34,051 nucleotides of DNA from a virus: positions 160,545 to 194,595 of the IMG/VR virus record IMGVR_UViG_3300048599_000816, one strand, 5' to 3'. Of this stretch, positions 4,762 through 34,051 are shown in pieces; the first letter of the stretch is position 1; each line of letters begins with the position of its first letter. Position numbers and translations under genes: made by a program. The notes under the pieces are model-generated. The model ran no database searches, was not told the DNA's origin, and saw only the letters and a program-made list of their open reading frames with translations.

Positions 4762-4810
4762 TTTTTCTCCTTTTGCTTCTCCTCTTATTACAAGAGTAGT
4801 TATTGAAGCA

Positions 4811-5092: not shown

Positions 5093-5124
5093 TTACTCTC
5101 TCCTTAGTTTGCACTCTACAATAT

Positions 5125-6105: not shown

Positions 6106-6114
6106 ATTTTCTCC

Positions 6115-7335: not shown

Positions 7336-8040
7336 TTAGACAGAAATCTCTTTTTGCACAGTTTTCTTTGATTGCGTATGATAGAGAGAGTTGTACTTTT
7401 TGAGGAGAGAGAATACTTTGTAATAAATTGCAGCTTCTCTCGCTAGTGACACACTTGAAGATTTTTTTAAATACTCTAGTCTTTTTAAACCTAACTTAAT
7501 TCTTGACCCTATAGATTCATAAAGCAAATCAGGTTTGCCTTCAGCTTTCCCAATTTTTTTTGCTATTCTTCTCAAATCATGATCTTTAAAATATTCTAAC
7601 ATTGCAATTTTTTGTTTTTTAGTCACATGTACATCAAGAAAATCTTCCATTTTTGTAATATCAATATTTCTAAAAAAACAAAGCAAGTTTATACGTTTTA
7701 GTGCACGTTTCTTATAATAACATACCATTTCTTGAGATACTTTTAAAATTCTACCCACAACTTCTTGTTTCTTTTTATAGAAAAACAATAAAAGTATCAC
7801 ATATTTTTCTATTTCTGGTAGCATGTGCTCTATAACATAATTTACTTCATTGATTTTCTCTTCATTCTCGAGCTCAATTTGAACGTCTTCAGAAGTATAG
7901 AGACTGTCACTATTTGAAAAAAACAACTCTAAAAGATTATTGTCAATTCTGACTTCACGTTTATATGCACTGATATCTCCACTTGGATCAAAGTGTCTTA
8001 TAATACTTGACTTACTTAATTTTGGGAGATAATCATCCAT
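7336..8040 (-). CDS. Sigma-factor-like protein (234 aa) with a region-4-type helix-turn-helix (VSQEMVCYYKKRALKRI).
   Basis: The motif resembles sigma-70 region 4 (lg.s.erVrqie.rAl.kL). The rest of the protein is not recognisably sigma region 2. Confidence 0.4.
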   Translation of the reverse strand: MDDYLPKLSKSSIIRHFDPSGDISAYKREVRIDNNLLELFFSNSDSLYTSEDVQIELENEEKINEVNYVIEHMLPEIEKYVILLLFFYKKKQEVVGRILKVSQEMVCYYKKRALKRINLLCFFRNIDITKMEDFLDVHVTKKQKIAMLEYFKDHDLRRIAKKIGKAEGKPDLLYESIGSRIKLGLKRLEYLKKSSSVSLAREAAIYYKVFSLLKKYNSLYHTQSKKTVQKEISV

Positions 8041-10061: not shown

Positions 10062-12338
10062 TCATTCTACAGTTACCAAACTTCCTTCTTCTGTCTTATT
10101 AACAATAATTTCATTTCCATTAATCAAATCTTTTAAAGATTCAATATGAGTAATGACAAATACTTGTTTATAGATTTTTGATATTTCTCTAATGACTTCA
10201 CCAAATTGTAAAATTCCACGAGCATCAAGTTTAGCAATCTTTTCATCAATTATAAGAGCTTCATGCTTCTTTCCTGCTCTTAATGATAAAAGCTTTGCTA
10301 ATGATAAAACAATACTGAAAACTATACGGACAGTTTCACCACCTGAGTACATTTGCAAATCTTTTGGTTCTTTACCTTCTTCTAAAACCAAAATGTCAAG
10401 TCCACCACCTTTTTTAAACTCACCATCTTGTTTTTTAGGGTCTAGATCAAACTTTATTTTTGTTTTTTCAGAATCTTCATTAAATATTTTTAAAAACTCT
10501 GTTGTATATTTTTCAAGCATTGGTATAGATTCTTTTATAATAGATTTTTGAATTCCATCTTTACCAAATATAGTTGAAAGAATTTGATACAACTTTTTTT
10601 GTTTCATGTTTTCTTCATTGATTTTTGCAAAATGAGCTATATCAGTTTTCATTTTTTCAAATTCATCAATTTTGTTTTTTGTCTCACCAATCTCTTGATT
10701 AACATCATCTATTTCGCTTCTATCTGTCTTAATTTCATCTTCAAGTTTTTCTATTGCAAGATTTATTGCTTTAAATGCTTGTTGAATTTTAGGGTCGATT
10801 TTTTGTTCGAGCTCAATAATATTGTCTTTTTTAGATTTAATTGTTATTTTAAGCTCTTCAATTTGTTTTGTTAAATCTATTTGTTCTTCTTCAGAAGTTT
10901 TCAAATACTCTTCAAAATCTTTTTCTTTTTCTTTAAATGTATTTTCATTGTTAATAATTGTTTGCAAAGAAAGTTTCGCTCTAGAAAGCTTATCATTTTC
11001 TTTCTGCCTAGAAAAAGCTTGTATTTCAAGTTTTCTCTGTTCTTTTTTTACAACATCTAATGAAAGTATTGCTTCGTTAAGAGTTTTATTTAGACTTTCA
11101 ATTTTTCCTTGAATCAAATCTAGTTCATTTTGTTTTGAATCTTTAAACTCGTTCTTGAATTTTTCATCGAGAATTTTACACTCTATTTCAATAATTGGAC
11201 AAATCTTCCCAAATTTTTCAAGTTTTGTCAATGTTGTTTTTATAGCATTCAATTCAGTTTTTAAAACAGCAATATCTTTTTCAATAATTTTTATTTCGTC
11301 GTCATGACTTTTGCAAACACCACTTAATTCTTTTATTTGTTTATCTACAACATCAAGTTCTTCAAGAATCTTTTCTTGATCTTTAATTGTTCGTTCTATT
11401 TGAAGTCTTTCTTCTTTTGAATCTTCAATAGATTGTTTACGTCTCTTATAAAGCTCAGTTTGCGATTTTACTTCTTCAATAGAAGACAAAATATCGCTTT
11501 GAGCGTCTTTGTATGCTCTCTCCAAACTTGTCAGGTCTCTATTGCCCTGAACAATTTGGGTTTTTATTAAATTTTCTGTCTCTATTAAAACATTAATTCG
11601 TTGCTTTTCTTCATTTTGTTGTTTTAACTCAATTTCTTTAGACTTCAATTCGCGTTTTGCTTTTTTCAAAACGCTTTCTAAAGTCTTGAAATTTTGTTTC
11701 ACTTGTTCTTCTTGTTCTAGTTGTTTTTGCTTATCTTGAATAAGATTTATATAGACTTGTATTTTTTTATCTAAATCATCAAATTTCTTACTGCATGCTC
11801 TTGCTGCTTTTTCATATAACTCAATATTAAGCAGTTCTCTAAGGATCTCTTTTCTCTCTGAACTTGTTCCTGTAATAATTTGAAGAGATTCACGTTCGTT
11901 CAAATAAGTTGTTGAACTATATGTTTTTGCGCTCAAACCAAGTATTTCTTCGATTGTTTTATCAGTTTTTTTCCAAGTAGCATCTTTCATCTCATTACTT
12001 GTTGTATCTAAAAAAATTTCATAAAGAGCAGAAGAATTTCTTGTTTTTGATCGAATCGATTTAAAACGTTGACCATCGATTTTAAATATGACTTCAAGAT
12101 ACATCTTTGTCATACTGTCATTTATATAGCTATCTAGCAAATCAGCTCTTCCTGAGCCTTTTCCAAAAAAATTCACAACTATTGCTTCAAAAAGACTAGA
12201 CTTTCCAGCACCATTCGACAATTCTGCGTCATCATTAATTCTACCAAGAACAAGACAAGCTTGAACATCAGACAAATCAATTTCTTGGCGTTTCCTATAA
12301 CTTAAAAAACCTTCAAGTATAATCTTCTCAAGTAACAT
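10062..12338 (-). CDS. sbcC: SbcC/Rad50-like ATPase (758 aa) with a long central coiled-coil.
   Basis: N-terminal Walker A (SNGAGKSSLFEAI). C-terminal signature SGGE followed by Walker B (ALIIDE). The middle is K/E-rich and heptad-like. Confidence 0.85.
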   Translation of the reverse strand: MLLEKIILEGFLSYRKRQEIDLSDVQACLVLGRINDDAELSNGAGKSSLFEAIVVNFFGKGSGRADLLDSYINDSMTKMYLEVIFKIDGQRFKSIRSKTRNSSALYEIFLDTTSNEMKDATWKKTDKTIEEILGLSAKTYSSTTYLNERESLQIITGTSSERKEILRELLNIELYEKAARACSKKFDDLDKKIQVYINLIQDKQKQLEQEEQVKQNFKTLESVLKKAKRELKSKEIELKQQNEEKQRINVLIETENLIKTQIVQGNRDLTSLERAYKDAQSDILSSIEEVKSQTELYKRRKQSIEDSKEERLQIERTIKDQEKILEELDVVDKQIKELSGVCKSHDDEIKIIEKDIAVLKTELNAIKTTLTKLEKFGKICPIIEIECKILDEKFKNEFKDSKQNELDLIQGKIESLNKTLNEAILSLDVVKKEQRKLEIQAFSRQKENDKLSRAKLSLQTIINNENTFKEKEKDFEEYLKTSEEEQIDLTKQIEELKITIKSKKDNIIELEQKIDPKIQQAFKAINLAIEKLEDEIKTDRSEIDDVNQEIGETKNKIDEFEKMKTDIAHFAKINEENMKQKKLYQILSTIFGKDGIQKSIIKESIPMLEKYTTEFLKIFNEDSEKTKIKFDLDPKKQDGEFKKGGGLDILVLEEGKEPKDLQMYSGGETVRIVFSIVLSLAKLLSLRAGKKHEALIIDEKIAKLDARGILQFGEVIREISKIYKQVFVITHIESLKDLINGNEIIVNKTEEGSLVTVE

Positions 12339-12732: not shown

Positions 12733-14922
12733 TTAATAGCCTACTTTTTCTTCGCCAAGTTCAAAAACACATTTGATACCATCAACAACAAGTTCGCAAT
12801 TCTCTCTGCTTGTGAATTCTTTAAACCATTTGCGACCAAGTATGACAGCCATTTTTGTTTTTTGAATATTTGAACGAAGTGATCTCAACTTTTTCTGTTT
12901 CTCTCCAATAGTTTTTTCAAACCATGAAGCAATTTCAGCTTTATCTTTGAGTGTTGCTTTTGCGTTTTCCCACAATGTGATTCCTGTTTCAATCAATGCT
13001 TCTGAAGCTGTTCTTGATTTATTTGAAGCAATCTTTTCCATGACTTTTTTGACAGTGGGCAATGTAGCAATACCTGACAATTTAATATCAAAAGTTTTAG
13101 CCATGTAAAAATCTACAGGGTCAGCTTTATCTGTTGGTGGAGAATAAACTCCTCCTCGTTCAACAAGAATACCATTCTCTTTTAAGAACAAAGCTTGTTC
13201 CTCAGTAAAATTTGATGGTACTTCTTGCTCATCACCAAGAACATCTGACTTTAACCACTTAAGAGCTTTAATCTCACCCTTAAGCTTCTGTTCAGCAAGA
13301 ACATTTTTGCAAAGTTCTTCACCTGAAATATCATCACCAGCAAGAACTCTATTGATTGCAGGAAGTTTTCCAAGATCTATTGCATAAACTTTTGATGTTT
13401 TAAAATCATCATCAACAACAATGCCTTCGTTCTTGAATTTCTTGTATGACTCTTGTGAAGAAGTAAGATAGAACACTTTTGTATGGGTATGACCATCTTT
13501 TACGAAAGTATAGTTTCTAAAAACGTAAGTCGGATATTTGTCAATAAAACCCATTTGAGCTGCAGTTTTACCATTTGCTTCATGAAGGTCTATTGTACCT
13601 TTTATTGAAGTTTGAACTGACAAATTAAGACGACTTTCATGCCATACTAAAGTATTAAATGGACACTTACTTGTTTTATCTGCATAAAACTTGCTGTATC
13701 CGTCTTTTTCAGATGATTTTACACCAATTTTCTCATACGCAAACTTTTCGTGATACGGGAAAAAAGCACTTTCAGAATCTTCTGTTAACATATTTAATGC
13801 ATCATACACGCAAAAAGCGTCAGCTTTGGGAAGATAAGTTGCATCACGTCCACATGTGAATCTTGAACTTACATCATTTACAGACTTGCTTATAAATTCT
13901 TCAGTTTCTCCAAACTCTTCAACCATAAAAGCGTTATTAAGCTTGTCAATGATAGCTTTATCCCCAGCTTTTCCAACAATCTCCATAGCAATATCAGTTT
14001 TAGTTTGTTGACTCATTATCAATGCAGCACCATAAATTGCTTTTGCTAATGAATCTTGATTTGACCCAAAATCTACTTTCAAGAGATCAACTTTGTCCCA
14101 AGACTTTGTGTTTGGTTTCTCTGTTGTAAGATAATAGATTTTTACAGGCTTTCCTTTTTCTGGTGCAACATAAATTTTGTCATCATCAAGAGAAAGCGAA
14201 ACAACACCCTGATCAGTAACAGAAAAAATTGCTAAAGTATTTGAAAATAAAGGTTCGACTTCTTCTTTAGGTTCGCTTGAACTTGACATATCAACAAGTT
14301 TTACAATGTGATTTGTAAATTCTTTGACATTTGAACTGTGAATCAACATAGCACCAAGTTTTTCAGACATTTGCGCCATCAACTCTTTGTTGTAATAACA
14401 ACCACAACCTATCAACATTGCTGTATGAATTTTACCTTTGATTTTTTTGATAGAAGCAAAAATTGTATCTACTTCTTTTTTGTAGTTGCTAACAACAGGA
14501 TAACCATCAGTAAAAAGACAAAGCGAAAAGGTTTTTGATAAAACAGACAAATCGTTTACGACAACATCAGTATCAGTGAGAATTTCACTAAAACATGTAG
14601 TGCCTCTTGTTGTGTTGTTCTTTTTAATTGCAGCTTCAAGCGATTTATAATCAGCATTGTCAACAATTCTAAATCCTTTAAAAACCCAATTAAAATCACC
14701 TTCGCTGCTAAACCAGCCCAATGACAAAGAATCTCCTTTTGGGATCTTCTTTGATAACGTGATAAGTTGATCACAAAGTTCAGTAATCAACCCGTACATT
14801 GAACCTGATCTATCATAGATCCAAATATGATTTACAGGTTCTTTTTTTGCAACAATCTTTTTTGATTTTATTTCTTGTTCAACCAAAACAAGATCATTGT
14901 CAAATTTGACATACTTTGGCAT
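12733..14922 (-). CDS. Large von Willebrand factor A (vWA) domain protein with an intact MIDAS motif (729 aa).
   Basis: N-terminal IWIYDRSGSM (DxSxS), then TTRGTT (Thr), then LCLFTDGYP (TDG) make a complete metal-ion-dependent adhesion site. The remaining roughly 500 aa are unrecognised. Confidence 0.6.
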   Translation of the reverse strand: MPKYVKFDNDLVLVEQEIKSKKIVAKKEPVNHIWIYDRSGSMYGLITELCDQLITLSKKIPKGDSLSLGWFSSEGDFNWVFKGFRIVDNADYKSLEAAIKKNNTTRGTTCFSEILTDTDVVVNDLSVLSKTFSLCLFTDGYPVVSNYKKEVDTIFASIKKIKGKIHTAMLIGCGCYYNKELMAQMSEKLGAMLIHSSNVKEFTNHIVKLVDMSSSSEPKEEVEPLFSNTLAIFSVTDQGVVSLSLDDDKIYVAPEKGKPVKIYYLTTEKPNTKSWDKVDLLKVDFGSNQDSLAKAIYGAALIMSQQTKTDIAMEIVGKAGDKAIIDKLNNAFMVEEFGETEEFISKSVNDVSSRFTCGRDATYLPKADAFCVYDALNMLTEDSESAFFPYHEKFAYEKIGVKSSEKDGYSKFYADKTSKCPFNTLVWHESRLNLSVQTSIKGTIDLHEANGKTAAQMGFIDKYPTYVFRNYTFVKDGHTHTKVFYLTSSQESYKKFKNEGIVVDDDFKTSKVYAIDLGKLPAINRVLAGDDISGEELCKNVLAEQKLKGEIKALKWLKSDVLGDEQEVPSNFTEEQALFLKENGILVERGGVYSPPTDKADPVDFYMAKTFDIKLSGIATLPTVKKVMEKIASNKSRTASEALIETGITLWENAKATLKDKAEIASWFEKTIGEKQKKLRSLRSNIQKTKMAVILGRKWFKEFTSRENCELVVDGIKCVFELGEEKVGY

Positions 14923-16576: not shown

Positions 16577-17410
16577 TTATTGACAAGATAGACATCTTTT
16601 TGCATTATGAGCTTTAGCTACAAAAAGATTATTACATTTGATGCATTTTTTTTCATACAACTTGGGATTGTTTTTTTTCGTATCACTAATTTTTTGTTTT
16701 GATTTTTCAGTATGAACCTTTCCAAAAAACGAATTACCTTTACCTTTTGTCCGAGCACTAATATTCTTTTTTACTTCTTCTGAAAACTTCTTACCCTCAA
16801 GACTTTTAGTTATTTTTTGTTTAGACTCTAAACTATGTTTTTTGCCAAACATTCCGTTATTTTCACCAGAAGAAGCACGACTTAATTTTCTTTTATGAGA
16901 TTTAGAAAGAACTCTACCTTTATTTGCATTACTTACTTTATCTTTTGCTTCTTGCGTATGTTTTCGTCCATACATACCATTTTTTTCGCCTGCTCCCTTG
17001 CCTTTTCTGTTTCTTTTTAACTTTCTAAGCGATTTATCAGACAAATTATGTATTCCGTCACCACCATCTGTCAAATTTGTTAAAGGCCCAGTTTTTAAAT
17101 CTATTCTACCAATTGATTTTATTAACTGTATTTCAAGTTTAGAAGCATCAACAAAGCTCAAATCTGTTTTTATTTTAATTCTAAAAGCATCTACACCTGT
17201 TTCTCTTTTAATCTTACAAATTTTATTTGCTTTTAATTTATTTGAGTCTTTATGTTTGTAAGCAGACTGTAAGTGGTGATCTATTCTATTTTCTCTTCCT
17301 AAACCTATATAAAAGGGTTCAAATGAAAACAAATTATCAAAAACAATTGGTTTTCTTGGATCTAAATATGCATAAACATAAAAATCAGTTTTTTGACGAT
17401 TTAATTTCAT
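16577..17410 (-). mobile_element. Free-standing GIY-YIG homing endonuclease gene with three C-terminal NUMOD3-like repeats (277 aa).
   Basis: FYVYAYL ... FYIGLGRENRIDHH is the GIY-(10-11)-YIG motif plus a conserved Arg. The repeats are GEKNGMYGRKHTQEAKDKVS, GENNGMFGKKHSLESKQKIT and NSFFGKVHTEKSKQKIS. No Shine-Dalgarno. The 5' end overlaps the ruvC-like 3' end by 26 nt. Confidence 0.8.
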
Positions 17411-22849: not shown

Positions 22850-24406
22850 TCAATTTTTTATTGCATCAACAAAATATTGTGGGAAAAATTTTCTATTTTG
22901 TTTAAGAAAGTAATTAAATTGACTATCCATGATGTAGATCGTGCAAAAATCTTTTTCATGTCTTACACCACGACCTGCAGCTTGAACAAGCGTCAAAGCT
23001 GTTTTCCACTTATACCATTCACTATCAAGCTCCATACGTTTTTTTATTTGTTTGTCTCCCAAAAACATAAATGGCAACTTAACTATAACAACAAATCTTG
23101 CAAGATCGTCTTTTAAATCAACACCTTCTGTCATTGAAGGTGTGATCAAAACTTTAGGCTCTTTTGTTTCTAAAAAACCTTTAAGTGCGTTAATTCGAGA
23201 TTCACTATCATGTAAAATTAATCTTGATTGATACTTAGGATCGACGTTTTCTTTTATGTAATTTGCAATTTTATAAGAATGTGCATGAATCAATCCTTTT
23301 TCTGAATCATGAAACTCTAAAATCCTGCCTATATCAAAAGCTATTTTGGGTAAAGATTCTTCAATGTCGTTTTTTCCTAAATTCCCAGACCTTGTTAATA
23401 TGATTGGTCTTATATCTACAGGAAATGAAGAAGGAACTTGAATAAACTTTGTCTTCTTAATATCTAAATCTAAATTTTTACAAAAACTATCTTTATCAAG
23501 AATTGTCGCTGACATAAATAGTTTTTTTTCAGCATGCCTAAAAAGTAAATTTTGAGCAAAAAACCCGACAGTTAAAGGTTTGAAAATAATTGTTTTTGAC
23601 CTTAACTTTTCGTTAGTTGTTATATCAAAGATCCACTCTATTTTCCCATAACTCTCCAAAAACATTTTTACACGTTCTTGTTGACTTATTAAGCTCTCAA
23701 GCTCTTTTTGAAGGTCAGAAATTATTGCTACATCAAGAAATTTGTTTTTCAGTTTTTCTGTAGTTTCTTTTCTTCTTTCTTTTATTTTCTCTTGAAGCAT
23801 CTTTAACCACTCGACATATTCTTCGAGTTTTTCATATAAAGGTATTTTTGAAGTTACACCAAGTTTTGAAAGATTGAAAGACGAAAAACTAAACTCAACA
23901 AACGACATACACTCATTATCTAAACTATGTGCTTCATCACATATCAAAAGTTTTCTATCAGGAAAAGTATTTGTGTAATTTGTAATACAAAGAAAGTACT
24001 TATAGTTCATTAAAGCAACAAAAGATTCTACAGCTTGTTGTTTTGCAACTTCATAAAAGCACTCGGGTTTTACAGGACATTGTTTTGTAGAACAATATGA
24101 ATCTTCACATGTAAAATCAGGAAGCAATTTGCAAGGATAGTTGTTTCTACCTTTAAGAACTCTAACTCTACCCGAACTATAATCTTTTATGTATTGATCT
24201 TGAAGTATTTTTTGCGACGTTAAAAGGAAAGCAGATTTATAATAAAGTCCCAGACAAATTGCAATAGCGCTTTTACCTGAACCTGTAGGGCTTTCCAAAA
24301 CAACATTCTCTATTTCTTCAGAATCTAAACTCTGTTGTATGTCGAGAATTGTTTCTTTTTGAAAAGGTCTGAACGTCGTGTGTGGGAAAAAATCGAGAAC
24401 GCTCAT
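22850..24406 (-). CDS. XPD/Rad3/DinG-family SF2 helicase with an inserted 4-Cys Fe-S domain (518 aa).
   Basis: Walker A SPTGSGKSAIAI. DEAH box LICDEAHSLD. Between them sits CKLLPDFTCEDSYCSTKQCPVKPEC. C-terminal motif VI QAAGRGVRH. Confidence 0.75.
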   Translation of the reverse strand: MSVLDFFPHTTFRPFQKETILDIQQSLDSEEIENVVLESPTGSGKSAIAICLGLYYKSAFLLTSQKILQDQYIKDYSSGRVRVLKGRNNYPCKLLPDFTCEDSYCSTKQCPVKPECFYEVAKQQAVESFVALMNYKYFLCITNYTNTFPDRKLLICDEAHSLDNECMSFVEFSFSSFNLSKLGVTSKIPLYEKLEEYVEWLKMLQEKIKERRKETTEKLKNKFLDVAIISDLQKELESLISQQERVKMFLESYGKIEWIFDITTNEKLRSKTIIFKPLTVGFFAQNLLFRHAEKKLFMSATILDKDSFCKNLDLDIKKTKFIQVPSSFPVDIRPIILTRSGNLGKNDIEESLPKIAFDIGRILEFHDSEKGLIHAHSYKIANYIKENVDPKYQSRLILHDSESRINALKGFLETKEPKVLITPSMTEGVDLKDDLARFVVIVKLPFMFLGDKQIKKRMELDSEWYKWKTALTLVQAAGRGVRHEKDFCTIYIMDSQFNYFLKQNRKFFPQYFVDAIKN

Positions 24407-24855
24407 ATATGCTCTATATCTTGTACTTTTGATTTTACAATTTTATCGAAATATGAGGGCTTTATTTTCACTACACGCTTTCGTATTTCAACTATAATTC
24501 CATCTATATTTGAAAGATCACCTTGTTTTATAATTACATGATCCCCTGTTTTAAATAACGAAGGTTTTGTTTGTTTTAATTCTACGTCAGTAACAGATAG
24601 CTTTTTAATTTGTGCTGATGTAAATTTTTGCGGACCTTCTTTTTTCGTCCCAAGAAATTTCAATACACCTTCAAAAACTAAAAAATTACTTACTTGTTGT
24701 GGTAAAATAGCAGTAGTAGAACGAATAAAAATATAACCTGAAAGCTCTTCTGAAGTAAACACTTCTTGAAAAGCCAAACTTTTTTGTTTTGAGACTAATT
24801 GATCTCTAATATATTGCTCAAAACCTTGGCGGACTAAAAGAATATACCAACTCAA
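24403..24855 (-). CDS. NusG-like transcription elongation / antitermination factor with NGN and KOW domains (150 aa).
   Basis: WYILLVRQGFEQYIRDQL resembles the NusG WYVVQAFSGFEGRV segment, and SGYIFIRS resembles PGYVLVQM. The C-terminal KOW is FKTGDHVIIKQGDLSNIDGIIVEI. ATGA overlaps on both sides. Confidence 0.65.
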   Translation of the reverse strand: MSWYILLVRQGFEQYIRDQLVSKQKSLAFQEVFTSEELSGYIFIRSTTAILPQQVSNFLVFEGVLKFLGTKKEGPQKFTSAQIKKLSVTDVELKQTKPSLFKTGDHVIIKQGDLSNIDGIIVEIRKRVVKIKPSYFDKIVKSKVQDIEHI

Positions 24856-26275: not shown

Positions 26276-27388
26276 TTATTGTAGGGCTAATGTAAATACG
26301 TTTTGCATATTTTTTGCATCATTAAGTGATTTTTCAAATTCATCTTTTGTACAATCATCAGGATCTTTTCCTTCAGGCAATACAAGATTAAAAACTTGAA
26401 TATCTGTAAGGTACTCATGCATAATCTTTTGTGCAGCTTCTTGGCCTGGATTTGATTTTTTTCCATTTATATCTATTTTATTATCGTTATCTAATGCTAT
26501 ATAAATTCGTTCAAAATTTTGAACTAACTGTTTCGTCTTATAAGAGTTTAAATGGCAACTTAAAAGCGCGACAACATTGTATCCAAATTTCATAATTCTT
26601 AATGCATCAAAAATACCTTCGCAAATAAAAACTTCTTTTTTGTATTTAATTGCTTCATCCCAGTTAAAAAACAACCTACTCATAGGCGTTCCAAAAGGAT
26701 AAAGTATTTTTTTGTAAAGATATTTATCAATGATACGTTGCTTATCTTGTTTTGAAAGATTTTTTGTCTTCATTATAGCTTTTGCTTTTGCCCATATATC
26801 TGACTTTCCCGACATATCTCTTGCAGCAAAAGTAATCAATTTATTTTGTAAATAAACTGGTATTATTAAACGTTCATGAAAAATTCTATCATCAACGCAA
26901 TACTTCATCCCATATTTTTTAATATCTTCCATACAAACACGTTTTTTTACTATATCGAAATATTTCTCAGCAGGTTCACTTGGGGGCAAAACAACTTCTT
27001 TTAATTGTTCATCATCTTCATCTTCTGTATGATTTTCATAAAACTGAAATGTAGAATTTTTCACTATTGAAAATACATCAACTGTCTCATCAATTCCCAC
27101 TTGTCTTCTTGCAAACGCTATTGCTTCTTTTGTAGAGTTTAGATTTTCTAAGTTTTTTATTAACTTAACAAAATCACCACCTCCGCAAACAAAACAGTTA
27201 TAAACACCATTTTTTTCTTGAATACCAAAAGACGGCGTAGAATCATCATGAAAAGGGCAGAGACACATAAATTCTCTGCCCTTTTTTGTCCTATAAGGCT
27301 TATATTCAATATTGTAGTGCTTAAGAACTTTTTCAAGATTTACTTTTGCGTAAATCTCGTCATAGATTTGTTCATAGTTCTCTATCAT
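26276..27388 (-). CDS. dnaG: DnaG-type DNA primase with a CHC2 zinc-binding domain and a TOPRIM domain (about 370 aa).
   Basis: CLCPFHDDSTPSFGI...YNCFVCGGGD is the DnaG zinc ribbon. FICEGIFDAL is the TOPRIM EGxxD. The ORF-track start is a GTG at 27430. The first ATG is at 27388 and overlaps the upstream gene by 17 nt. Confidence 0.8.
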   Translation of the reverse strand: MIENYEQIYDEIYAKVNLEKVLKHYNIEYKPYRTKKGREFMCLCPFHDDSTPSFGIQEKNGVYNCFVCGGGDFVKLIKNLENLNSTKEAIAFARRQVGIDETVDVFSIVKNSTFQFYENHTEDEDDEQLKEVVLPPSEPAEKYFDIVKKRVCMEDIKKYGMKYCVDDRIFHERLIIPVYLQNKLITFAARDMSGKSDIWAKAKAIMKTKNLSKQDKQRIIDKYLYKKILYPFGTPMSRLFFNWDEAIKYKKEVFICEGIFDALRIMKFGYNVVALLSCHLNSYKTKQLVQNFERIYIALDNDNKIDINGKKSNPGQEAAQKIMHEYLTDIQVFNLVLPEGKDPDDCTKDEFEKSLNDAKNMQNVFTLALQ

Positions 27389-28148
27389 TTTTAGCACACG
27401 TCTTTTTATACTGACAAAAATAACAATCACCTAGTCTTGAATTCAATTTAGGTTCTTTTGCAAAATCTTTCTTTGATATTCGTTCAAGCATATTGTTAAT
27501 TTGTCTAAACAAACTATTAAAATCTTCTTCAGTTCTTTGTGTAAACAAAATATCTCCATCAATAGGATATGCAAGCGCTCCATGAATTGATTCTAATGGA
27601 TATTTATATAGTTCTTTAATGAAAAAACTATAAAAAGTGATTTGTGTATTGTTGTCAATATCTTTCTCTTTGCTTTTTGAAGATTTCCAATCAAGACAAA
27701 TGATTATTTCATTGTTCTCAAGAATAATATCAATCCTACCTGACAAAAAAACATTATCAAGATAAGGATTAATAAAGGGTATCTTACAATATTTTTCTAT
27801 TTCAACTACTCTAAAACCTTCCCAACGTTTTTTCATTTTCTTGACATTTCCAATTTGCAATAATCCCTTAACTAAACAATCATCAAGTTCTTTTGCATTA
27901 GGAAAATTTAAACCCTTTGCTTCTGTACAAAAAGCTATAAACAATGCTTTCCAAGATGAAGCAATTTCATCTAAACTCATTCCATACTTGAAATGTAATT
28001 CTAAAGCTTTATGTAAGACTGAACCAAAAGTCGTAAAAATATATGCTTCATCAGCTGGTCTCTCATCAATAAACTGCCATTTGTACATTTGCGAACATTT
28101 AAAAAACGAAGACAAAGATGATGAAGAAACTGTTAAATAATCTCTCAT
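27372..28148 (-). CDS. Cas4/RecB-family PD-(D/E)xK nuclease with a 4-Cys Fe-S cluster (258 aa).
   Basis: One N-terminal Cys (FKCSQMY) plus C-terminal CYFCQYKKTC (Cx2Cx5C). GRIDIIL...ICLDWKSSK is a D...D-x-K core. TQITFY is a QhxxY motif. Confidence 0.6.
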   Translation of the reverse strand: MRDYLTVSSSSLSSFFKCSQMYKWQFIDERPADEAYIFTTFGSVLHKALELHFKYGMSLDEIASSWKALFIAFCTEAKGLNFPNAKELDDCLVKGLLQIGNVKKMKKRWEGFRVVEIEKYCKIPFINPYLDNVFLSGRIDIILENNEIIICLDWKSSKSKEKDIDNNTQITFYSFFIKELYKYPLESIHGALAYPIDGDILFTQRTEEDFNSLFRQINNMLERISKKDFAKEPKLNSRLGDCYFCQYKKTCAKNDREL

Positions 28149-29446
28149 GATTTCATCTCGTTAAACAAAAACTCTACTGCTTTTTCATTTACTGTACCAA
28201 TGTACATCGAGTTATAAGGTATTTTATTTTGTAACAGATCTTGCTTAATTTTTGCCTCTCTATTAGAATCAAATTTTAAAAGATTTGTAATTCTCATTGT
28301 ATAAGCAACAACTTCATCTTCTGTAGCTTTGATATCAAAATCCTTAACAATCTGTTCTATAACAAGTGACGTCTTCACTACTTGAATTGTACGAGGTGTT
28401 GTGTTTACGATAAAACTTTCTTTTGTTACTTTGCTTTCTTTTTCAAGTTGTCCTTCAGTTTTCCCCATACGTCTCAATAAAGCTTCCCACTCATTATCAT
28501 TTTCTTTATCGATCATCACTTGTGGAATTGGTGAAATTTCTGATTCATCAACAATTTTTGAAAGAATGACTTTTTTAAACGTATCAATTGATTTCTTTTG
28601 TTTTTCATCAAGTAAACGAATTTTCAAATTATCTTCATAAGCTTGAATAGAATCAAAACCCTTTGATTTTGCAAAACTGTCATTATAATCAGGTGCGACT
28701 TTGTATTTTATTGCATTTAGTTTTACAGTAAATATAACTTTTTTACCTGACAATTCTTTACTATGATAATCAACAGGGAAAGTCACATTTACTTGACGTA
28801 CTTCGTTAATTTTCATTCCGACAAGTTGATCTTCAAAATTATCAATAAATTGCTTTCTTCCATTGACAAGATCATTTACTCTAATCTGATAGTTCTTTGC
28901 TGTTCCACCTTTAAAAGGTGTTGTTTCTCCATCAAGAACACCTTCAAAATCTATTAAAGCAATATCAAGATTTTCTAAAATTTCTTTTGTAGAGTCGTGA
29001 ATTGTTTCGCTTTGTTTGATTTCTGCATCAATCTTCTCTTTTAACTCAACATCAGAAATAGTTGTTGCTTCAAGTTTCTCTGTTTCTTTTATCTTATCTA
29101 ATGAAACAAGTTTGACAGTCGGTTTTACTTCAGCAACAAACTCTATAGTAAGTGTTGATTTTCTTTTTAAATCTCCAAAGATCTTAAAATCTCTAGTCGA
29201 GACAAGACTAGTTTCTAATGTCGCAATGTCTCTAACAATCTGATCAATCATTGATTTATATAAACGTTCAACGCCAATTTTAGTTTCAGCAACATCTTGA
29301 GGTACACAACCTTTTCTAAAACCTGGTACTTCGATTTCAGACTTTACTCGTTCGTAAGCAGCTTTCTTTCTTTCATTCACATCATCAGCATCAACTGTGA
29401 CAATGTATTTTACAGGTGTTGGCATTTTTTCTGTCTTAATGTCCAT
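28145..29446 (-). CDS. tig: Trigger factor homologue: ribosome-associated chaperone with a PPIase domain, full length (about 433 aa).
   Basis: N-domain signature VPGFRKGCVP (trigger factor GFRxGxxP). FKBP-type middle domain: IDFEGVLDGETTPFKGGTAKNYQIRV...FIDNFEDQLVGMKINEVRQVNVTFPVDYHSKELSGKKVIFTVKL. C-domain: DSFAKSKGFDSIQAYEDNLKIRL and TIQVVKTSLVIEQIV...ATEDEV. Start placed at the ATG at 29446, with AAGGAG 7 nt upstream. The ORF-track start is 29491. Confidence 0.8.
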   Translation of the reverse strand: MDIKTEKMPTPVKYIVTVDADDVNERKKAAYERVKSEIEVPGFRKGCVPQDVAETKIGVERLYKSMIDQIVRDIATLETSLVSTRDFKIFGDLKRKSTLTIEFVAEVKPTVKLVSLDKIKETEKLEATTISDVELKEKIDAEIKQSETIHDSTKEILENLDIALIDFEGVLDGETTPFKGGTAKNYQIRVNDLVNGRKQFIDNFEDQLVGMKINEVRQVNVTFPVDYHSKELSGKKVIFTVKLNAIKYKVAPDYNDSFAKSKGFDSIQAYEDNLKIRLLDEKQKKSIDTFKKVILSKIVDESEISPIPQVMIDKENDNEWEALLRRMGKTEGQLEKESKVTKESFIVNTTPRTIQVVKTSLVIEQIVKDFDIKATEDEVVAYTMRITNLLKFDSNREAKIKQDLLQNKIPYNSMYIGTVNEKAVEFLFNEMKS

Positions 29447-29450
29447 TATA

Positions 29451-30896
29451 CTACTCCTTGTCTTTCTCGACAACTGTCGAAGATGCTTCATCTACTCTTG
29501 AGTCATATTCAAATCTCATAATATCGAATTTTTTTATAAAAAACAGTTTTGAAACACGTGAGTCTCTTGTCTTAGGAAAATCAAGACATGCTGTTTCATC
29601 ATCTCCTGTGATACCCATCATATTATCTACATTGTGTCCAAGTTTATCAGTGAAAGCTGCATCCATAGAATCAACTTCTTTACCGTGTAAATGTCTTTTG
29701 TGCGACTCTCTATTAAACTGACTTGCTCCTATAATTGGAATACTTCTTGATCTTGCAAGCAATTTTAGATCCCATGAAATTACTCCTACAGGATCGTCTG
29801 ATTTTCTATCGCTTGGTGTCATTAAATAAATTGGATCTATAATTAAAAGGTCAACCCTTTTACCCGAAACATTTTCGAAAGCAGTAATTCTTGAGTCGAT
29901 AAATTGACAATTGCAATTTTGAGGTGCATCAATTATCCAGTAAAAATTTGAATGATCTTCTTTGAGCTTCTTCATTTTTCGTTCTATTAATTGTAGCTCT
30001 TCATCGCTCATTAAATCTGGTGTCTTAATTTTATTGTATGCTACTCTTGTGACTAAGGATGTGAATCTATTTCTTTGTTGCACTAATGGCATTTCAATTG
30101 TGACATAAATGATATTGTAACCTGATTTATATGCATTATAACCAAAATTCAAAAGCAAAATAGATTTTCCCATACCTGGTCTACCAAGAACCAAAGAGAA
30201 CTCACCAGGTTGCCAACCACCAGTTGCTTGATCTATTTTTTTATAGCCTGTAGTTATTCCTTGGTATTTTTCAGGGTTTTCGCGTTTTTCTTTTAACTGC
30301 TCTATATACAAGTCAACGTCTTGAACAACATCTTCTTCTATAACTCTATATTTTCCATTAGAAAGAAGAACTTTATTTACAGAGTCTTGTATGTTTTGTG
30401 CCAAAACCATTGCTTCGTGTTTTTCGTCTACAAAGTCATGTTTTAACTGTTCATTTATTTTCAAATTAATGTCAAGAAGACTTCTATAAAAAAACTTCTC
30501 TTTTAATTTATCATACATTGGTTTAAAAGATTTGCTCTCAAATCTGTATGAAAAAATCTTCTCTAAAACTACCTTTTTTTGCTCGTACTCTTCTTGTTCT
30601 TTGTACTTAGATTTTAGCTCATCAAATAAAAAACTTTTAGATACACATTCTGAAAAAGACACAAAATTTTCTTGTAGTTTAGAAAACATCCATTGTTTAA
30701 AATCTGATGTGAATACTTCTTTAGGTAAGCCCAAAAATGTTACGTAAGACAAATTTGAGTTTATCTCGTCAACATCTGTTTTCATATCAAAATCATTATC
30801 GAAAACAAGCAGTCTTAAAACTTTACATTCTAAAACAACATCGACAAATGGTTTTGTATTTTCACTTGGAGCATCAGTTTGTTTTCTTGAAATCAT
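29451..30896 (-). CDS. dnaB: DnaB-family replicative DNA helicase (481 aa).
   Basis: GEFSLVLGRPGMGKSILLLNFGYNAY...VTIEMP (Walker A / H1). Downstream H2-H4-like motifs. Confidence 0.85.
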   Translation of the reverse strand: MISRKQTDAPSENTKPFVDVVLECKVLRLLVFDNDFDMKTDVDEINSNLSYVTFLGLPKEVFTSDFKQWMFSKLQENFVSFSECVSKSFLFDELKSKYKEQEEYEQKKVVLEKIFSYRFESKSFKPMYDKLKEKFFYRSLLDINLKINEQLKHDFVDEKHEAMVLAQNIQDSVNKVLLSNGKYRVIEEDVVQDVDLYIEQLKEKRENPEKYQGITTGYKKIDQATGGWQPGEFSLVLGRPGMGKSILLLNFGYNAYKSGYNIIYVTIEMPLVQQRNRFTSLVTRVAYNKIKTPDLMSDEELQLIERKMKKLKEDHSNFYWIIDAPQNCNCQFIDSRITAFENVSGKRVDLLIIDPIYLMTPSDRKSDDPVGVISWDLKLLARSRSIPIIGASQFNRESHKRHLHGKEVDSMDAAFTDKLGHNVDNMMGITGDDETACLDFPKTRDSRVSKLFFIKKFDIMRFEYDSRVDEASSTVVEKDKE

Positions 30897-31639
30897 AATT
30901 TATCCAATAAAGATTCACCAATTATATTTCTATAGTCTTCGCCTAATAATTTAACTTCAATTAATCTCTCTTTGAAATTTGAATAAAGTGCTTCACCCAG
31001 CAAATCTCTATTTGACTCTAGAGGATGATTTGAAGTAATTATTGTACACAAATTTGCATCATCACGCTTTGTAAATATTTCGTCAATATTTGCACGTTCG
31101 CTGTCGTTTATCTGACTAAATAATCTACCTATATCGTCAATAACAAAAAATGTACTGTTATTCACAACATAAGAAAAATAAGCTTTTTTTTCTTCACTTT
31201 TCCAACCCGATCTAACAAAATCTATTATTTCTGAAGATCTGCTAAAAAAAGAAGGGTAATAATGTTCAATTGCAATTTTTAAGATAATGATTGCAATTGC
31301 AGTCTTCCCAACACCATGTGAACCAGAAATATACAATCCTATTCCCTCTTTAGCAGCTTTTTCAATCGATGAAATATATTTCTCGATCTTTTTAATTTGT
31401 TCGCCATTAGACTCTATAGTTTCAATTTTGTCGCGTATTGTTGAAAATTGAAACTTAAAATATTTTTCTGGGATATTTGCAAGTAAAAAGTTTTTCTCAA
31501 AAAAATTATCAACAGAACTGTAATGACTCAATCTTTCAACAATTTTTTCATTTCCAAATCTTGAAATATCTATCATGCGATGAAAATGCGACCAAAATTC
31601 ATGCTTTAAAGGACTATCTTGTTTTTTTCTTGTTATCAT
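30893..31639 (-). CDS. DnaC/DnaI/IstB-like AAA+ helicase loader ATPase (about 248 aa).
   Basis: Walker A GLYISGSHGVGKTAIAI. Walker B FFVIDDIGR. The start is probably the ATG at 31639 (ATGA overlap with the upstream stop), not 31651. Confidence 0.65.
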   Translation of the reverse strand: MITRKKQDSPLKHEFWSHFHRMIDISRFGNEKIVERLSHYSSVDNFFEKNFLLANIPEKYFKFQFSTIRDKIETIESNGEQIKKIEKYISSIEKAAKEGIGLYISGSHGVGKTAIAIIILKIAIEHYYPSFFSRSSEIIDFVRSGWKSEEKKAYFSYVVNNSTFFVIDDIGRLFSQINDSERANIDEIFTKRDDANLCTIITSNHPLESNRDLLGEALYSNFKERLIEVKLLGEDYRNIIGESLLDKL

Positions 31640-32523
31640 TGTTGTATCCAATCATAATCTTTTTTTATCTCTTGCTCGCGTTTTTCTTCTAATAAAGTTT
31701 TACAACCTAACAAATACAATCTATTAAGACCCTTAAAGTCTTTAGTTCTTATGTACGCTTGATATGCTGTGTTACCTTCGATTTGTCCAGAAGCTATTTT
31801 AATAGCAAGTTGTTTGTTACTATCTTCAAACTCTTGTTTGTATTGTTTTAAAGTTAAAGTTTTTAAATCGTCTTTGTCAGCTGTTTTATCTGATCGTTCT
31901 TCTTGGATTTTTTTCATTATTCCATGAATATATGATGCAGGTTTTTTAGCATAATGACTTGTAATGTAAATATCACAAGTTTTTTCTAAAACAATTTGAG
32001 GTACTTCGAAAAAAGCATCAGTCAAAAACTTTATATCTTGTAACTCTACTTTTCCTTTTTCGCCATAAAGATACTTAACATGGCCTGAAATAAGTTCAGC
32101 AACTTTTTCAGAAAGTCTTGCATTTGAAAAACTAGTAACAATTCTATCAATGTATTTGTCTAAATAATCAGACATATTTCGTTTTCTTCGAATTTTTATT
32201 GCATCATCAGTCAAAATCAAACGAAATTTTTCATCAGAATTTTGAATCATGCCAATATTAAGTTCATAAGTATTCTGCCCGTAAATTCTTTTGACTAAAT
32301 TCCAATAACTTAATTCGCCCCAAGAGTACTCTATTCTCTCTTTATCTTCTGATATAAGTATATGTTTTTGAAAAACAGATGATGGAACAGAGATTTCGTT
32401 CCCCTTTTCCTTATTATCAAAATAAAAAAATATAAATCGTAATAAAGTACAAAAACTGTCAGGATTAAGCAGTTTTAAATATTGTTCGAGGAACTCTCTT
32501 GGGATCACATTTTTATCTTGCAT
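31636..32523 (-). CDS. Hypothetical protein (295 aa), possibly a replication initiation or organiser protein given its position 5' of the loader-helicase pair.
   Basis: ORF track. Function is inferred from position only. Confidence 0.45.
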   Translation of the reverse strand: MQDKNVIPREFLEQYLKLLNPDSFCTLLRFIFFYFDNKEKGNEISVPSSVFQKHILISEDKERIEYSWGELSYWNLVKRIYGQNTYELNIGMIQNSDEKFRLILTDDAIKIRRKRNMSDYLDKYIDRIVTSFSNARLSEKVAELISGHVKYLYGEKGKVELQDIKFLTDAFFEVPQIVLEKTCDIYITSHYAKKPASYIHGIMKKIQEERSDKTADKDDLKTLTLKQYKQEFEDSNKQLAIKIASGQIEGNTAYQAYIRTKDFKGLNRLYLLGCKTLLEEKREQEIKKDYDWIQQ

Positions 32524-33475: not shown

Positions 33476-34051
33476 TTAAAAGTGCTTCTTTACTTTAAAC
33501 AAAGGTTCAGATTCGTAAATTTTCATTCTTTTCTTTGAATGACCAGTAAGATATCGAATTCTATCATAAAAATCAACAATAATTGCTTCTTTTTTTTCAT
33601 TATTTTCAGCTGAAGGATATGGTCTTAATGTACGTCCCACTCTTTGTAAAGACTTAATAAGTGATTTTCCACCACCTGCCATAATTGCTGAACCTAAAGC
33701 AGGTATGTCAACGCCTTCGTCAGCAACAGAACTTCCTACAAGAACTTGTAATTGTTTTTTACGAACTTTGTTAAGTAAATCTTTTCGCATCTCTCCGTCA
33801 ACTTCACCTTGTATAAAAGCAACAGAGCTAACTCCCGCCTTGTCTAGCATTTCGCATAACACATCACCATGAGGTAACCTGGTGACAGTAATCAACACAG
33901 ACTTACCTAACTCGAGTAATCGTAGACAACTATCAACAATCATTTCATTTCGAAGTTTATTGTTAACAATATAATCTTCGTAAATATTCCTAAAAGATTT
34001 TTGGACATATTTATATCTTGGATGCTCATTTGGGTCAAGCATGTAGATGTG
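33476..34051 (-). CDS. SF2 helicase, C-terminal domain only. The 5' part of the gene lies beyond the window end.
   Basis: Motif VI QRVGRTLRP. Motif V-like LVGSSVADEGVDIPAL. The frame is open through the last 9 nt of the window upstream of the first in-window ATG. Confidence 0.65.
   Translation of the reverse strand, partial: HIYMLDPNEHPRYKYVQKSFRNIYEDYIVNNKLRNEMIVDSCLRLLELGKSVLITVTRLPHGDVLCEMLDKAGVSSVAFIQGEVDGEMRKDLLNKVRKKQLQVLVGSSVADEGVDIPALGSAIMAGGGKSLIKSLQRVGRTLRPYPSAENNEKKEAIIVDFYDRIRYLTGHSKKRMKIYESEPLFKVKKHF

Follow-up and report, generated by a model that had tools for sequence, protein, structure and literature searches.

A trigger factor encoded within the replication module of a huge-phage lineage

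A protein of 433 residues encoded in the DNA of an uncultured huge phage is a trigger factor (TF) by every sequence and fold test applied to it. The window analysed here, meaning the whole stretch of 34,051 nucleotides at positions 160,545 to 194,595 of IMG/VR virus record IMGVR_UViG_3300048599_000816, carries replication and recombination genes in a module of T4-like type, and the contig is a phage. We consider it fairly probable that this is a genuine, functional TF which a huge-phage lineage (contigs to ~427 kb) acquired in the distant past from a Bacillota-like bacterium and has retained as a core gene. Judged from its sequence, its most likely role would be that of a chaperone acting on the ribosome for phage nascent chains.

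The first-pass annotation had recognised all three TF modules in this product, and profile searches bear this out, with Trigger_N, FKBP_C and Trigger_C matches that each exceed the Pfam gathering scores (Table 1). The NCBIfam equivalog TIGR00115 ('tig') is matched end to end (protein residues 12-427 against profile positions 3-409 of 410) at 240.6 bits, compared with a cut-off of 180.2, and phmmer matches the protein to TFs of solved structure. The peptides quoted in the annotation (GFRKGCVP, IDFEGVLDGE, FIDNFEDQLVGMK, VTFPVDYH and LSGKK) are all located in the 433-residue product. The annotation had also named a way in which it could be wrong, namely that the FKBP domain alone would be significant; because the N-terminus aligns to Trigger_N (over profile positions 1-142 of 144) and GFRxGxxP is conserved in relatives, the protein is not just an FKBP domain. 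A stand-alone FKBP-type PPIase (SlyD/FkpA/FklB type) is ruled out by the presence of both TF-specific domains at significant scores, and a GroES/GroEL-type chaperonin by the lack of any Cpn10 or Cpn60 match in Pfam, NCBIfam or PHROG, the fold matches being to TFs only.

Table 1. Features of the TF gene, its product and the packed gene run around it (positions in the window)
Feature	Position	Strand	Details
DnaG-type primase	26276..27430	minus	phrog_47 3.8e-47; last gene of packed run
PD-(D/E)XK / Cas4-like nuclease	27372..28148	minus	phrog_69 1.5e-17; directly downstream of TF
ATGA, TF stop overlapping nuclease start	28145..28148	minus	read from sequence; translational coupling
Phage TF gene	28145..29446	minus	433-aa ORF, full length, N-terminus MDIKTEK
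Trigger_C arm (chaperone) domain	28163..28648	minus	aa 267-428; PF05698 9e-14, profile 2-161 of 162
FKBP-type PPIase domain	28718..28978	minus	aa 157-243; FKBP_C PF00254 8e-13
Trigger_N ribosome-binding domain	29012..29446	minus	aa 1-145; Pfam PF05697 5e-17 at aa 1-140
GFRKGCVP signature	29300..29323	minus	aa 42-49; aligns to E. coli GFRKGKVP
DnaB-like replicative helicase	29451..30896	minus	phrog_19 1.3e-56; directly upstream of TF
Shine-Dalgarno AAGGAG	29454..29459	minus	final two dnaB codons (K-E), 7 nt 5' of ATG
DnaC/IstB-like helicase loader	30893..31651	minus	phrog_50 5.4e-28
orf295, 295-aa conserved protein	31636..32523	minus	first gene of packed run

The GFRKG signature reported for the N domain is indeed there, and we take the loop that carries it to be the counterpart of the E. 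coli TF loop that docks on ribosomal protein uL23. Among 23 phage TFs, F43, R44 and G46 are invariant, and conservation at G42, K45, V48 and P49 is 90% or higher; the FRK triplet, needed for ribosome binding by E. coli TF, is retained in 21 of the 23. Mean identity across the phage clade is 0.62 in this loop, compared with 0.45 in the remainder of the N domain. In the FKBP domain, the pocket residues F167, F178, F204, Y227 and F239 are invariant across the clade and map by alignment onto the pocket residues F168, F177, F198, Y221 and F233 of E. coli TF. The AF2 model (pLDDT 88.5, pTM 0.66) predicts the elongated three-domain TF fold with an N-terminal tail, a PPIase head and C-terminal arms, the arm domain being all-helical. 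The structural comparison proposed earlier agrees with this assignment: the best Foldseek matches in the PDB are full-length TFs, namely E. coli 2vrh_A (9e-21), the second-best match 3gty_X of T. maritima (TM 0.61/0.64) and E. coli 1w26_A, with differing inter-domain angles between the predicted phage protein and the PDB structures (rmsd 7-10 Å). Ribosome binding at uL23, PPIase activity and chaperone activity are putative properties of the phage TF, predicted from its sequence.

The gene lies on the minus strand, which the annotation had left unstated, in a tightly packed, gap-free run of genes in the order orf295-dnaC-dnaB-tig-nuclease-primase. Its reported place between a DnaB-type helicase and a Cas4-like nuclease is correct; orthologues of the nuclease match both PDDEXK_1 and Cas_Cas4. 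orf295, which has neither a Pfam nor a PHROG match, keeps its position in all relatives. The Shine-Dalgarno sequence is, as claimed, buried in the last codons of dnaB: the coding strand at the junction reads AAG GAG TAG TATA ATG, in which the dnaB stop codon TAG is followed by four bases and then by the TF start codon at 29446. At the other end, the ATGA overlap between the TF stop and the nuclease start recurs in four relatives (L004, L011, L188 and L230). An upstream ATG at 29491 would give a 448-residue reading; the 433-residue start is favoured on sequence grounds, both by the Shine-Dalgarno spacing and by the relatives, 23 of which were aligned and mostly start at the same Met. We rejected an internal promoter or terminator that would isolate the TF gene, since promoter-like and terminator-like sites are no commoner than in shuffled sequences; the single 10/12 promoter match at the gene overlaps its start codon, and no minus-strand terminator isolating it was found.

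The other genes of the window, all on one strand, include those for UvsX, UvsY, a gp32-like SSB, SbcCD, RuvC and a homing endonuclease, and the module that holds TF also has one NusG-like and one sigma-like gene. The window contains no tRNAs and no virion structural genes. A protein identical to the window TF is encoded by a contig that measures up to 426,911 bp. By walking along a relative with 56% identity, a 424,144-bp IMG/VR UViG with an orthologous TF, we reached a contractile-tail baseplate module ~20-30 kb upstream of TF, with genes for a gp6-like baseplate wedge protein (phrog_6, 8.6e-30), gp25-like proteins and giant fibre-like proteins. These features of the relative place the lineage among tailed phages (Caudoviricetes) of the jumbo/huge class (>200 kb).

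That the DNA is instead bacterial chromosome, a megaplasmid or an assembly chimera is very improbable. Such an origin could be suspected since the GenBank 'phage' records that match TF and were examined (H1, H5 and H20) turn out to be bacterial loci with the order tig-clpP-clpX or tig-clpX-engB, megaplasmids with TF exist, and one relative lies in a MAG labelled Nanoarchaeia. However, neither clpP nor clpX, the usual bacterial neighbours of tig, occurs near the phage TF, and T4-type recombination genes and a homing endonuclease adjoin it instead. The helicase is closest to those of jumbo phages (e.g. Bacillus phage G), the DnaB-TF-nuclease arrangement has been assembled independently across many samples, and neither 185,579 species-representative genomes nor the 72,556 plasmids of PLSDB contain a member of the clade. 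Bacterial contamination is rejected on the absence of clpP, clpX and engB from the window and its relatives, and a megaplasmid on the absence of any clade member from PLSDB and the sharing of one contig by the baseplate module and an orthologous TF. The possibility raised in the first-pass annotation, that the contig is bacterial chromosome, therefore fails on the T4-type genes and the baseplate module. As a side observation, at least one MAG assigned to archaea contains misbinned DNA of this phage lineage.

TF is a core gene of this huge-phage lineage and not a one-off, with homologues in at least two other jumbo-phage groups. The arrangement DnaB-(0-1 gene)-TF-(0-1 gene)-PD-(D/E)XK occurs in all seven IMG/VR contigs with a homologous DnaB (at least 39% identity), and DnaB-TF synteny holds in every relative whose upstream region is present. 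The gene order is also maintained in metagenome contigs at 39-58% TF identity, and L188 and L230 retain the order DnaB-x-TF-nuclease at ~30% TF identity. The two other jumbo-phage groups (B and C) have separately branching TFs, with a PD-(D/E)XK nuclease adjacent or in the vicinity and with DnaE not far away. The phage TF clade is monophyletic in all 200 bootstraps of a neighbour-joining (NJ) tree, in which its stem measures 0.57 substitutions per site and it is nested among Bacillota TFs; identity to any cellular TF is only 30-36%. Bootstraps for the sister group scatter among Onthoplasma, Erysipelotrichia and Clostridia, probably owing to long-branch effects. A single origin of all viral TFs is not supported by the NJ tree (1 of 200 bootstraps), though a distance tree would be compatible with one very old capture. 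The PPIase loop reads IDNFED(Q) in the phage TF and in Clostridia TFs, in contrast to IPGFED in E. coli TF. As a phage-specific change this motif had to be discarded, being present in 62 of the 97 closest cellular TFs; as a Clostridia-type trait it hints at the donor.

All three TF domains are under purifying selection. Comparison of the window with a 94% identical copy (L020) gives a dN/dS of 0.057 for TF (N domain 0.053, FKBP domain 0.042, C-terminal arm 0.069), and the flanking replication genes give 0.024-0.059. Neither the 23 clade proteins nor the IMG/VR loci examined include a frameshifted or truncated copy. TF has diverged more rapidly than the replication enzymes next to it (56% identity compared with 81-84% for its neighbours in L012), as might be expected of a recently captured host gene that is useless to the phage and decays as a neutral passenger. 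This reading is rejected, and we regard it as extremely improbable, on the selection and distribution data: the dN/dS value, the presence of TF in seven of seven related contigs, the deep monophyletic clades, the synteny conserved to ~30% identity and the lack of broken copies.

The surface of the phage TF departs from that of its cellular relatives. Net charge is -6 for the window TF and averages -5 in the clade, compared with -38 in the 97 closest cellular TFs, the ranges being non-overlapping, and position 6 of the motif is never Lys in phage TFs, compared with Lys in 86 of those 97. The loss of acidity and of the position-6 Lys points to an altered interaction surface. Although bacterial gene context and acidity are both missing, membership of the TF family stands because neither feature is defining. 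The charge loss and the fixed replisome context fall outside what a ribosome-bound chaperone explains.

The mechanism we favour for the ribosome-bound chaperone is as follows. TF would be expressed with the early/middle replication genes, inside the gap-free run and translationally coupled on both sides; with this position it would be present before the late proteins are made. The GFRKGxxP loop of the N domain would dock on uL23 where the tunnel of the host ribosome opens. Phage polypeptides leaving the tunnel would be held by the C-terminal arms and the FKBP domain, which would keep them from folding too early and from aggregating and would isomerise their prolines, with a higher yield of hard-to-fold phage products as the result. 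Plausible clients are the multi-domain baseplate and fibre proteins of 1,000-3,400 residues, such as a baseplate protein of 1,063 residues and a fibre protein of 3,431, which are encoded 10-30 kb upstream in relatives. We infer which proteins are clients, when TF is expressed and that the host or donor belongs to the Bacillota. Conservation of the motif suggests selection for ribosome docking, unlike in bacteria, where additional TF copies have as a rule lost either the ribosome-binding motif or the entire N domain because TF overdose harms through that motif (PMC11559001). The suggestion in the first-pass annotation, that the phage manipulates co-translational folding, would be a reasonable reading of this motif conservation. 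Since ~98% of bacteria already have TF (PMC11559001), the need for a second one is unexplained. The changed charge and motif, the faster divergence and the fixed position beside helicase and nuclease could also count against the ribosome-bound chaperone.

Ribosome docking might instead serve host takeover, the phage TF displacing host TF, SRP and other exit-site factors from uL23, with the aim not mainly of folding but of disturbing host protein biogenesis and division or of biasing ribosomes towards the phage. When TF is overproduced, E. coli and Myxococcus form filaments and synthesise less protein, an effect that depends on the ribosome-binding motif (PMC11559001), and the phage copy keeps this motif with an altered position 6 and charge, consistent with changed competition at the exit site. 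However, a blocker would need the N domain alone, yet the PPIase pocket and arms are conserved and under purifying selection, and no N-domain-only versions are seen in the lineage. We therefore hold host takeover to be unlikely.

A further possibility, to which we assign only a small chance, is that TF acts mainly off the ribosome, assembling or remodelling the replication-recombination machinery, with the DnaB hexamer and its DnaC-like loader, the primase and the Fe-S Cas4-like nuclease as candidate clients. Phage lambda offers a precedent for chaperones at the helicase, since it needs host DnaK/DnaJ/GrpE to release DnaB from lambda P. TF structures with assembly clients also exist, one of them showing T. 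maritima TF with ribosomal protein S7, which it binds in the course of assembly (PDB 3gty). TF always sits inside the helicase-nuclease-primase run and is coupled translationally to both neighbours, the recurrence of nuclease and DnaE near the TFs of groups B and C and the order retained in L188 and L230 fit the same idea, and ~30 fewer negative charges would lessen repulsion from DNA and DNA-binding proteins. On the other hand, the docking loop is the best-conserved part of an N domain that is under purifying selection throughout, whereas a factor working off the ribosome should lose this loop, as bacterial paralogues do (PMC11559001). Conserved order in a vertically inherited core module needs no functional link, and sigma-like and NusG-like expression factors occupy the same module. 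A more specific form, in which TF is tied to the replisome as a dedicated ATP-independent assembly and remodelling chaperone for the helicase-loader-nuclease machinery, is suggested by the fact that lineage A with L188 and L230, and groups B and C, both have TF beside a Cas4-like nuclease in helicase/primase/polymerase modules, and that lineage A is charge-depleted; we judge it slightly more doubtful. Translation of the helicase, loader and nuclease proteins would possibly be coupled to their assembly under this form.

The ribosome-bound chaperone that we prefer can be set beside several known systems. A virus also supplies its own general folding helper in the case of T4, with the GroES-like co-chaperonin gp31, and of EL and other jumbo phages, with GroEL-like chaperonins. 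These helpers belong to another family and form a post-translational, ATP-dependent cage, whereas TF is co-translational, ATP-free and ribosome-bound. Bacterial Tig (E. coli 1W26/2VRH, T. maritima 3GTY) shares with the phage protein its domain order, length, GFRKGxxP motif, pocket aromatics and predicted fold; the phage TF differs in being virus-encoded, in its long stem, DnaB and Cas4-like flanks and near-neutral charge, and in lacking the position-6 Lys. Second copies beside a canonical TF include chloroplast TIG1/TIG2 and the Myxococcus paralogues without an N domain (PMC11559001); the phage TF differs from the bacterial extra copies in retaining its ribosome-binding motif under selection. 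Huge phages carry tRNAs, aminoacyl-tRNA synthetases, ribosomal proteins and initiation/elongation factors (Al-Shayeb et al. 2020, PMC7162821), which like TF are host-like components of protein synthesis, TF working on the nascent chain and not on decoding. The closest analogy is with the TF of the Hodor conjugative megaplasmid, likewise carried on a very large mobile element with giant multi-domain surface proteins, for which its authors propose that TF chaperones the giant proteins (bioRxiv 2026, PMC12934698). By analogy, this lends support to a giant-protein chaperone role for the phage TF. The Hodor gene belongs to a plasmid secretion module with SecYEG and a class B sortase, whereas the phage gene belongs to a replication module, and no sec genes occur in the window or in the loci examined.

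The first-pass annotation had called a virus-borne TF out of the ordinary for phages. As regards collections and literature this stands: there is no genuine phage TF in 50,697 GenBank phage records and no TF-like fold in the BFVD viral structure library, megablast matches 20 kb of the window to none of the GenBank phages, and we found no description of a phage TF in the searchable literature. The main text of Al-Shayeb et al. 2020 mentions neither trigger factor nor chaperones (PMC7162821), and one virome paper states that TF was undetected. A phage-encoded TF is thus so far undescribed in searchable literature and collections. Within its own lineage the gene is no rarity, being a core gene there and recurring in at least two jumbo-phage groups.

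To our knowledge, TF is the sole ribosome-bound chaperone of bacteria, and it is almost always single-copy because additional ribosome-binding copies are harmful. That a complete, motif-bearing TF has been retained despite deep divergence implies that controlling the exit site pays during infection by very large phages. It would extend the reach of the huge-phage 'translation takeover' from decoding (tRNAs, synthetases and factors) to nascent-chain folding. The phage TF offers a cloneable test case for the limits on production of giant multi-domain virion proteins, and for the coexistence of a second TF with that of the host. As a co-expression or fusion partner, a TF of near-neutral charge adapted to large beta-rich proteins could be of use, and the gene is a marker for this uncultured phage lineage. 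The helicase-TF-nuclease arrangement raises the question of a new, replication-linked use of the chaperone; if TF is indeed tied to the replisome, this would be a role never shown for it.

Every test applied here assigns the protein to the trigger factor (TF) family. All peptides quoted in the first-pass annotation are found in the product, and the claim of a full-length TF is borne out: Trigger_N, FKBP_C and Trigger_C all exceed their Pfam gathering scores, with the N-terminal region aligned to almost the whole Trigger_N profile (see table). The NCBIfam equivalog TIGR00115 (tig) matches end to end (240.6 bits; cut-off 180.2), and the PDB sequences matched by phmmer are TFs only (V. cholerae 1T11, 5e-24; E. 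coli 1W26, 1e-22). An AlphaFold2 model (mean pLDDT 88.5, with an alignment of 23 relatives as input) has full-length TFs as its best PDB matches (2VRH_A, 9e-21; 3GTY_X, TM 0.61/0.64; 1W26_A). The GFRKG signature expected in the N domain reads GFRKGCVP, aligned by phmmer with GFRKGKVP of E. coli, the loop by which TF docks on ribosomal protein uL23.

The source is a tailed, very large phage. All sizeable ORFs of the window lie on one strand, and PHROGs matches outline a T4-like replication/recombination module comprising helicases, a DnaC-like loader, DnaB, TF, a PD-(D/E)XK/Cas4-like exonuclease, a DnaG-type primase, a NusG-like antiterminator, a 5'-3' exonuclease, UvsY-like, gp32-like SSB, UvsX, a RuvC-like resolvase, a homing endonuclease, SbcD, SbcC, a ligase-like protein and a sigma-like protein. 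The nearest counterparts of the 518-aa helicase are encoded by jumbo phages (Bacillus phage G, 31.8%; Tunturi_5, RsoM2USA, XacN1 and the LR7565xx huge phages). The identical TF protein occurs on four recorded contigs (the longest 426,911 bp), and IMG/VR relatives lie on contigs of 424, 192, 71, 63 and 43 kb. As the 34-kb window contains no virion genes, these were sought by walking upstream along the 424-kb UViG of a relative, which, ∼20-30 kb from its TF, encodes a gp25-like protein and a gp6/J-like baseplate wedge protein (phrog_6, 8.6e-30); fibre-like proteins of 1,175 aa and 3,431 aa come next. The same baseplate gene is also present on the 63-kb contig, with a 40% identical TF. Origin from a bacterial chromosome, named in the first-pass annotation as a possible refutation, therefore fails in view of the phage module, the jumbo-phage-like helicase and the baseplate genes of relatives; clpP, clpX and housekeeping genes are absent from the 34-kb window. 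Three of the source samples come from landfill leachate wells; the paper reporting 138 jumbo phages from these wells does not mention TF (PMC12607003).

The placement of TF between the DnaB helicase and the Cas4-like nuclease is read likewise from the PHROGs matches. Its Shine-Dalgarno sequence is indeed buried in dnaB: the junction on the coding strand is AAG GAG TAG TATA ATG, where AAGGAG forms the last two dnaB codons. From orf295 (encoding a conserved 295-aa protein) to the primase, six genes follow one another tightly and overlap, and no promoter or terminator signals above chance are found within this run. Since NusG-like and sigma-like genes are embedded in the module, expression factors travel with the replication genes; NusG Pfam matches are found in orthologs from three relatives (L007, L009, L011), and phages of a second TF-carrying group (group B) encode a Sigma70_r2 protein between nuclease and TF.

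Features of the window and of related contigs (L-numbers denote contigs or loci of relatives; locations without a prefix refer to the window)
Feature	Location	Strand	Details
TF gene	28145-29446	minus	ORF, 433 aa
Trigger_N	aa 1-140		Pfam 5e-17, profile 1-142 of 144
FKBP_C	aa 157-243		Pfam 8e-13
Trigger_C	aa 267-428		Pfam 9e-14
GFRKGCVP	aa 42-49, nt 29300-29323	minus	docking-loop motif
ATGA	28145-28148	minus	TF stop overlapping nuclease start
NusG-like/antiterminator gene	24403-24855	minus	within replication module
Sigma-factor-like gene	7336-8040	minus	within replication module
Homing endonuclease	16577-17410	minus	phrog_314, 5e-23; between RuvC-like resolvase and 151-aa ORF
729-aa protein	12733-14922	minus	phrog_2426, 1.9e-118; between SbcD and SbcC
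SNF2/DEAD-type helicase	33476-34042		upstream of orf295; interrupted by window end
SNF2/DEAD-type helicase, relatives	L020:3966-6461; L012:281-2590 and 3388-6330		
ThyX, Dam methylase; TnpB (Cas12f1-like_TNB)	L007:6266-6886, 8220-9056, 11001-12083		flanking TF; after primase
Integrase, transposase	L016:38-3026	opposite	upstream
gp32-like SSB gene	L005:19027-20456		two pieces, 316 + 126 aa
Group B contigs	L190-L196, L201, L205, L221		
Group C contigs	L212-L220, L222		

Two further genes merit separate mention. The 729-aa protein has vWA-domain homologs in Ackermannviridae, Rhizobium phages and Bacillus jumbo phages. The SNF2/DEAD-type helicase has 492-505 aa in some relatives versus 831 aa in L020, where the PHROG match falls in two parts (aa 20-191 and 546-826) separated by a ∼350-aa insertion, which may be an intein or homing element.

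A search of 5.8 billion proteins places the window protein in a discrete group with 22 relatives at 39-60% identity (clade A), below which scores drop sharply from 303 to 174 bits, to cellular TFs of ≤36% identity. Within this lineage of uncultured huge phages, TF belongs to the core genes and is vertically inherited. The order orf295, DnaC-like, DnaB, TF, PD-(D/E)XK, primase is shared, as compared in the contexts of five relatives and in IMG/VR and metagenome loci; insertions beside TF are occasional (ThyX, Dam methylase, small ORFs), and TF loss is seen in none of the recovered contexts. In a DnaB-profile scan, all seven IMG/VR contigs with a DnaB ≥39% identical carry TF downstream and then the nuclease, including a 416-kb UViG (L188) and a 330-kb UViG (L230) with TFs ∼30% identical (measured at 30% for L188). 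Phage TFs of clade A are monophyletic in 200/200 bootstraps of a NJ tree, with a stem of 0.57 substitutions/site placed inside the Bacillota TF radiation and no stable sister group. Between the window copy and the 94% identical copy of L020, dN/dS is 0.057 (N domain 0.053, PPIase 0.042, C domain 0.069), within the span of 0.024-0.059 given by the flanking replication genes. Docking-loop residues F43, R44 and G46 and FKBP-pocket residues F167, F178, F204, Y227 and F239 are invariant across clade A, and mean identity is 0.62 in the docking-loop region versus 0.45 in the remaining N domain. TF nevertheless evolves faster than DnaB, primase and helicase (in the closest IMG/VR relative, 56% identity versus 81-84%).

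Mobile or accessory insertions around TF are seen in the distant relatives L007 and L016. L005, a 91-kb contig of this lineage (GCA_028717785.1, JAQUND010000006.1), was binned into a MAG labelled 'Candidatus Nanoarchaeia archaeon', so that its TF carries an archaeal name in NCBI; since archaea generally lack TF, it looks like a misbinned phage contig. Its split gp32-like SSB gene, a single 393-400 aa gene in the near-identical contigs L004 and L006, could reflect a frameshift, a misassembly or an intervening element.

Separately branching TFs occupy comparable positions in other jumbo phages. Generic TF patterns match 39 of ∼2.9 million IMG/VR contigs, ∼17 of which (28-266 kb) form groups B and C. 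Their TFs are full length with the motif GFRKGKAP, in the order Fn3-associated protein, PD-(D/E)XK/Cas4-like nuclease, (sigma-70-like, 250-aa protein), TF, small ORFs, DnaE Pol III alpha, with SbcC-like and dNMP-kinase genes nearby; genuine GenBank phages contain no such TFs. B and C are monophyletic in 196/200 bootstraps and all viral TFs together in 1/200 (NJ tree); as B and C fail to join clade A, there were either at least two captures or a single very old one. Six of the 39 contigs carry tig followed by clpP (three also clpX) and represent host flanks, and about six more look cellular. Four large IMG/VR contigs (L208-L211, 89-346 kb) encode a different folding factor, a protein of 387-450 aa that has a TF-type PPIase domain but lacks Trigger_N; it is probably secreted, and a lipoprotein-like signal sequence is also present in the full sequence from L209.

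The suspected rarity of phage TF holds. Clade A has no member among 50,697 GenBank phage records, 185,579 species-representative genomes (best matches 30-34% identical, nearly all Clostridia and Bacilli) or 72,556 plasmids, and the BFVD viral structure library contains no TF-like fold (best E 0.095). The full-length PHROGs family phrog_26774 matches at 3.9e-49 but is labelled 'unknown function'. Of the GenBank 'phage' records with a TF match, the three examined are bacterial DNA: an Acinetobacter record annotated leuA...tig-clpP-clpX, and two UNVERIFIED records with tig-clpP-clpX and tig-clpX-engB, respectively. Records CAKLQH020000005.1 (whose annotation also includes leuA and a TonB receptor), CAKLQF020000005.1, MT835536.1 and OR844993.1, filed as phages and holding bacterial tig-clpP-clpX or tig-clpX-engB, are contaminated or mislabelled, and anyone looking naively for phage TFs would be led astray by them. 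The literature searched yielded no report of a phage TF and describes neither its carrier and context nor the TFs of other jumbo phages: one virome study from the Southern Ocean states that a TF analogue was not detected, and the huge-phage survey of Al-Shayeb et al. (PMC7162821) makes no mention of TF in its main text. The closest precedent is the TF of 'Hodor' megaplasmids, encoded beside SecYEG and sortase and proposed as a chaperone of giant proteins (2026 preprint, PMC12934698).

TF is single-copy in nearly all bacterial genomes; its overproduction causes motif-dependent filamentation and reduced protein synthesis, and in surplus copies the motif or the N domain is lost (PMC11559001). Unlike these, the phage copies keep the motif under selection across deep divergence, which suggests ribosome docking. 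Judged from sequence, we consider it fairly probable that phage TF acts as a ribosome-docked chaperone: made together with early/middle replication genes, it would attach to host ribosomes by its conserved loop, shield phage nascent chains and assist their folding. The clients would likely be the phages' own baseplate and fibre proteins, which are very large and multi-domain.

Clade A TFs differ from cellular TFs in being near-neutral (mean net charge -5, range -11 to +1, pI 5.85), with no overlap with the 97 closest cellular TFs (mean -38, range -49 to -17, pI 4.57), and in never having Lys at motif position 6, present in 86/97 of the latter. These changes are at odds with the view that phage TF is simply an extra host TF. 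Together with the recurrent place of TF beside helicase and nuclease, they keep alive two other readings, each improbable in our estimate: a replisome-linked assembly chaperone, and, with equally low odds, an exit-site competitor used for host takeover. The protein family itself is already known; new are its carrier, a huge-phage lineage, and its genomic context. As a docked chaperone, the reading we favor, phage TF would add the ribosome exit site to the host functions duplicated by huge phages.
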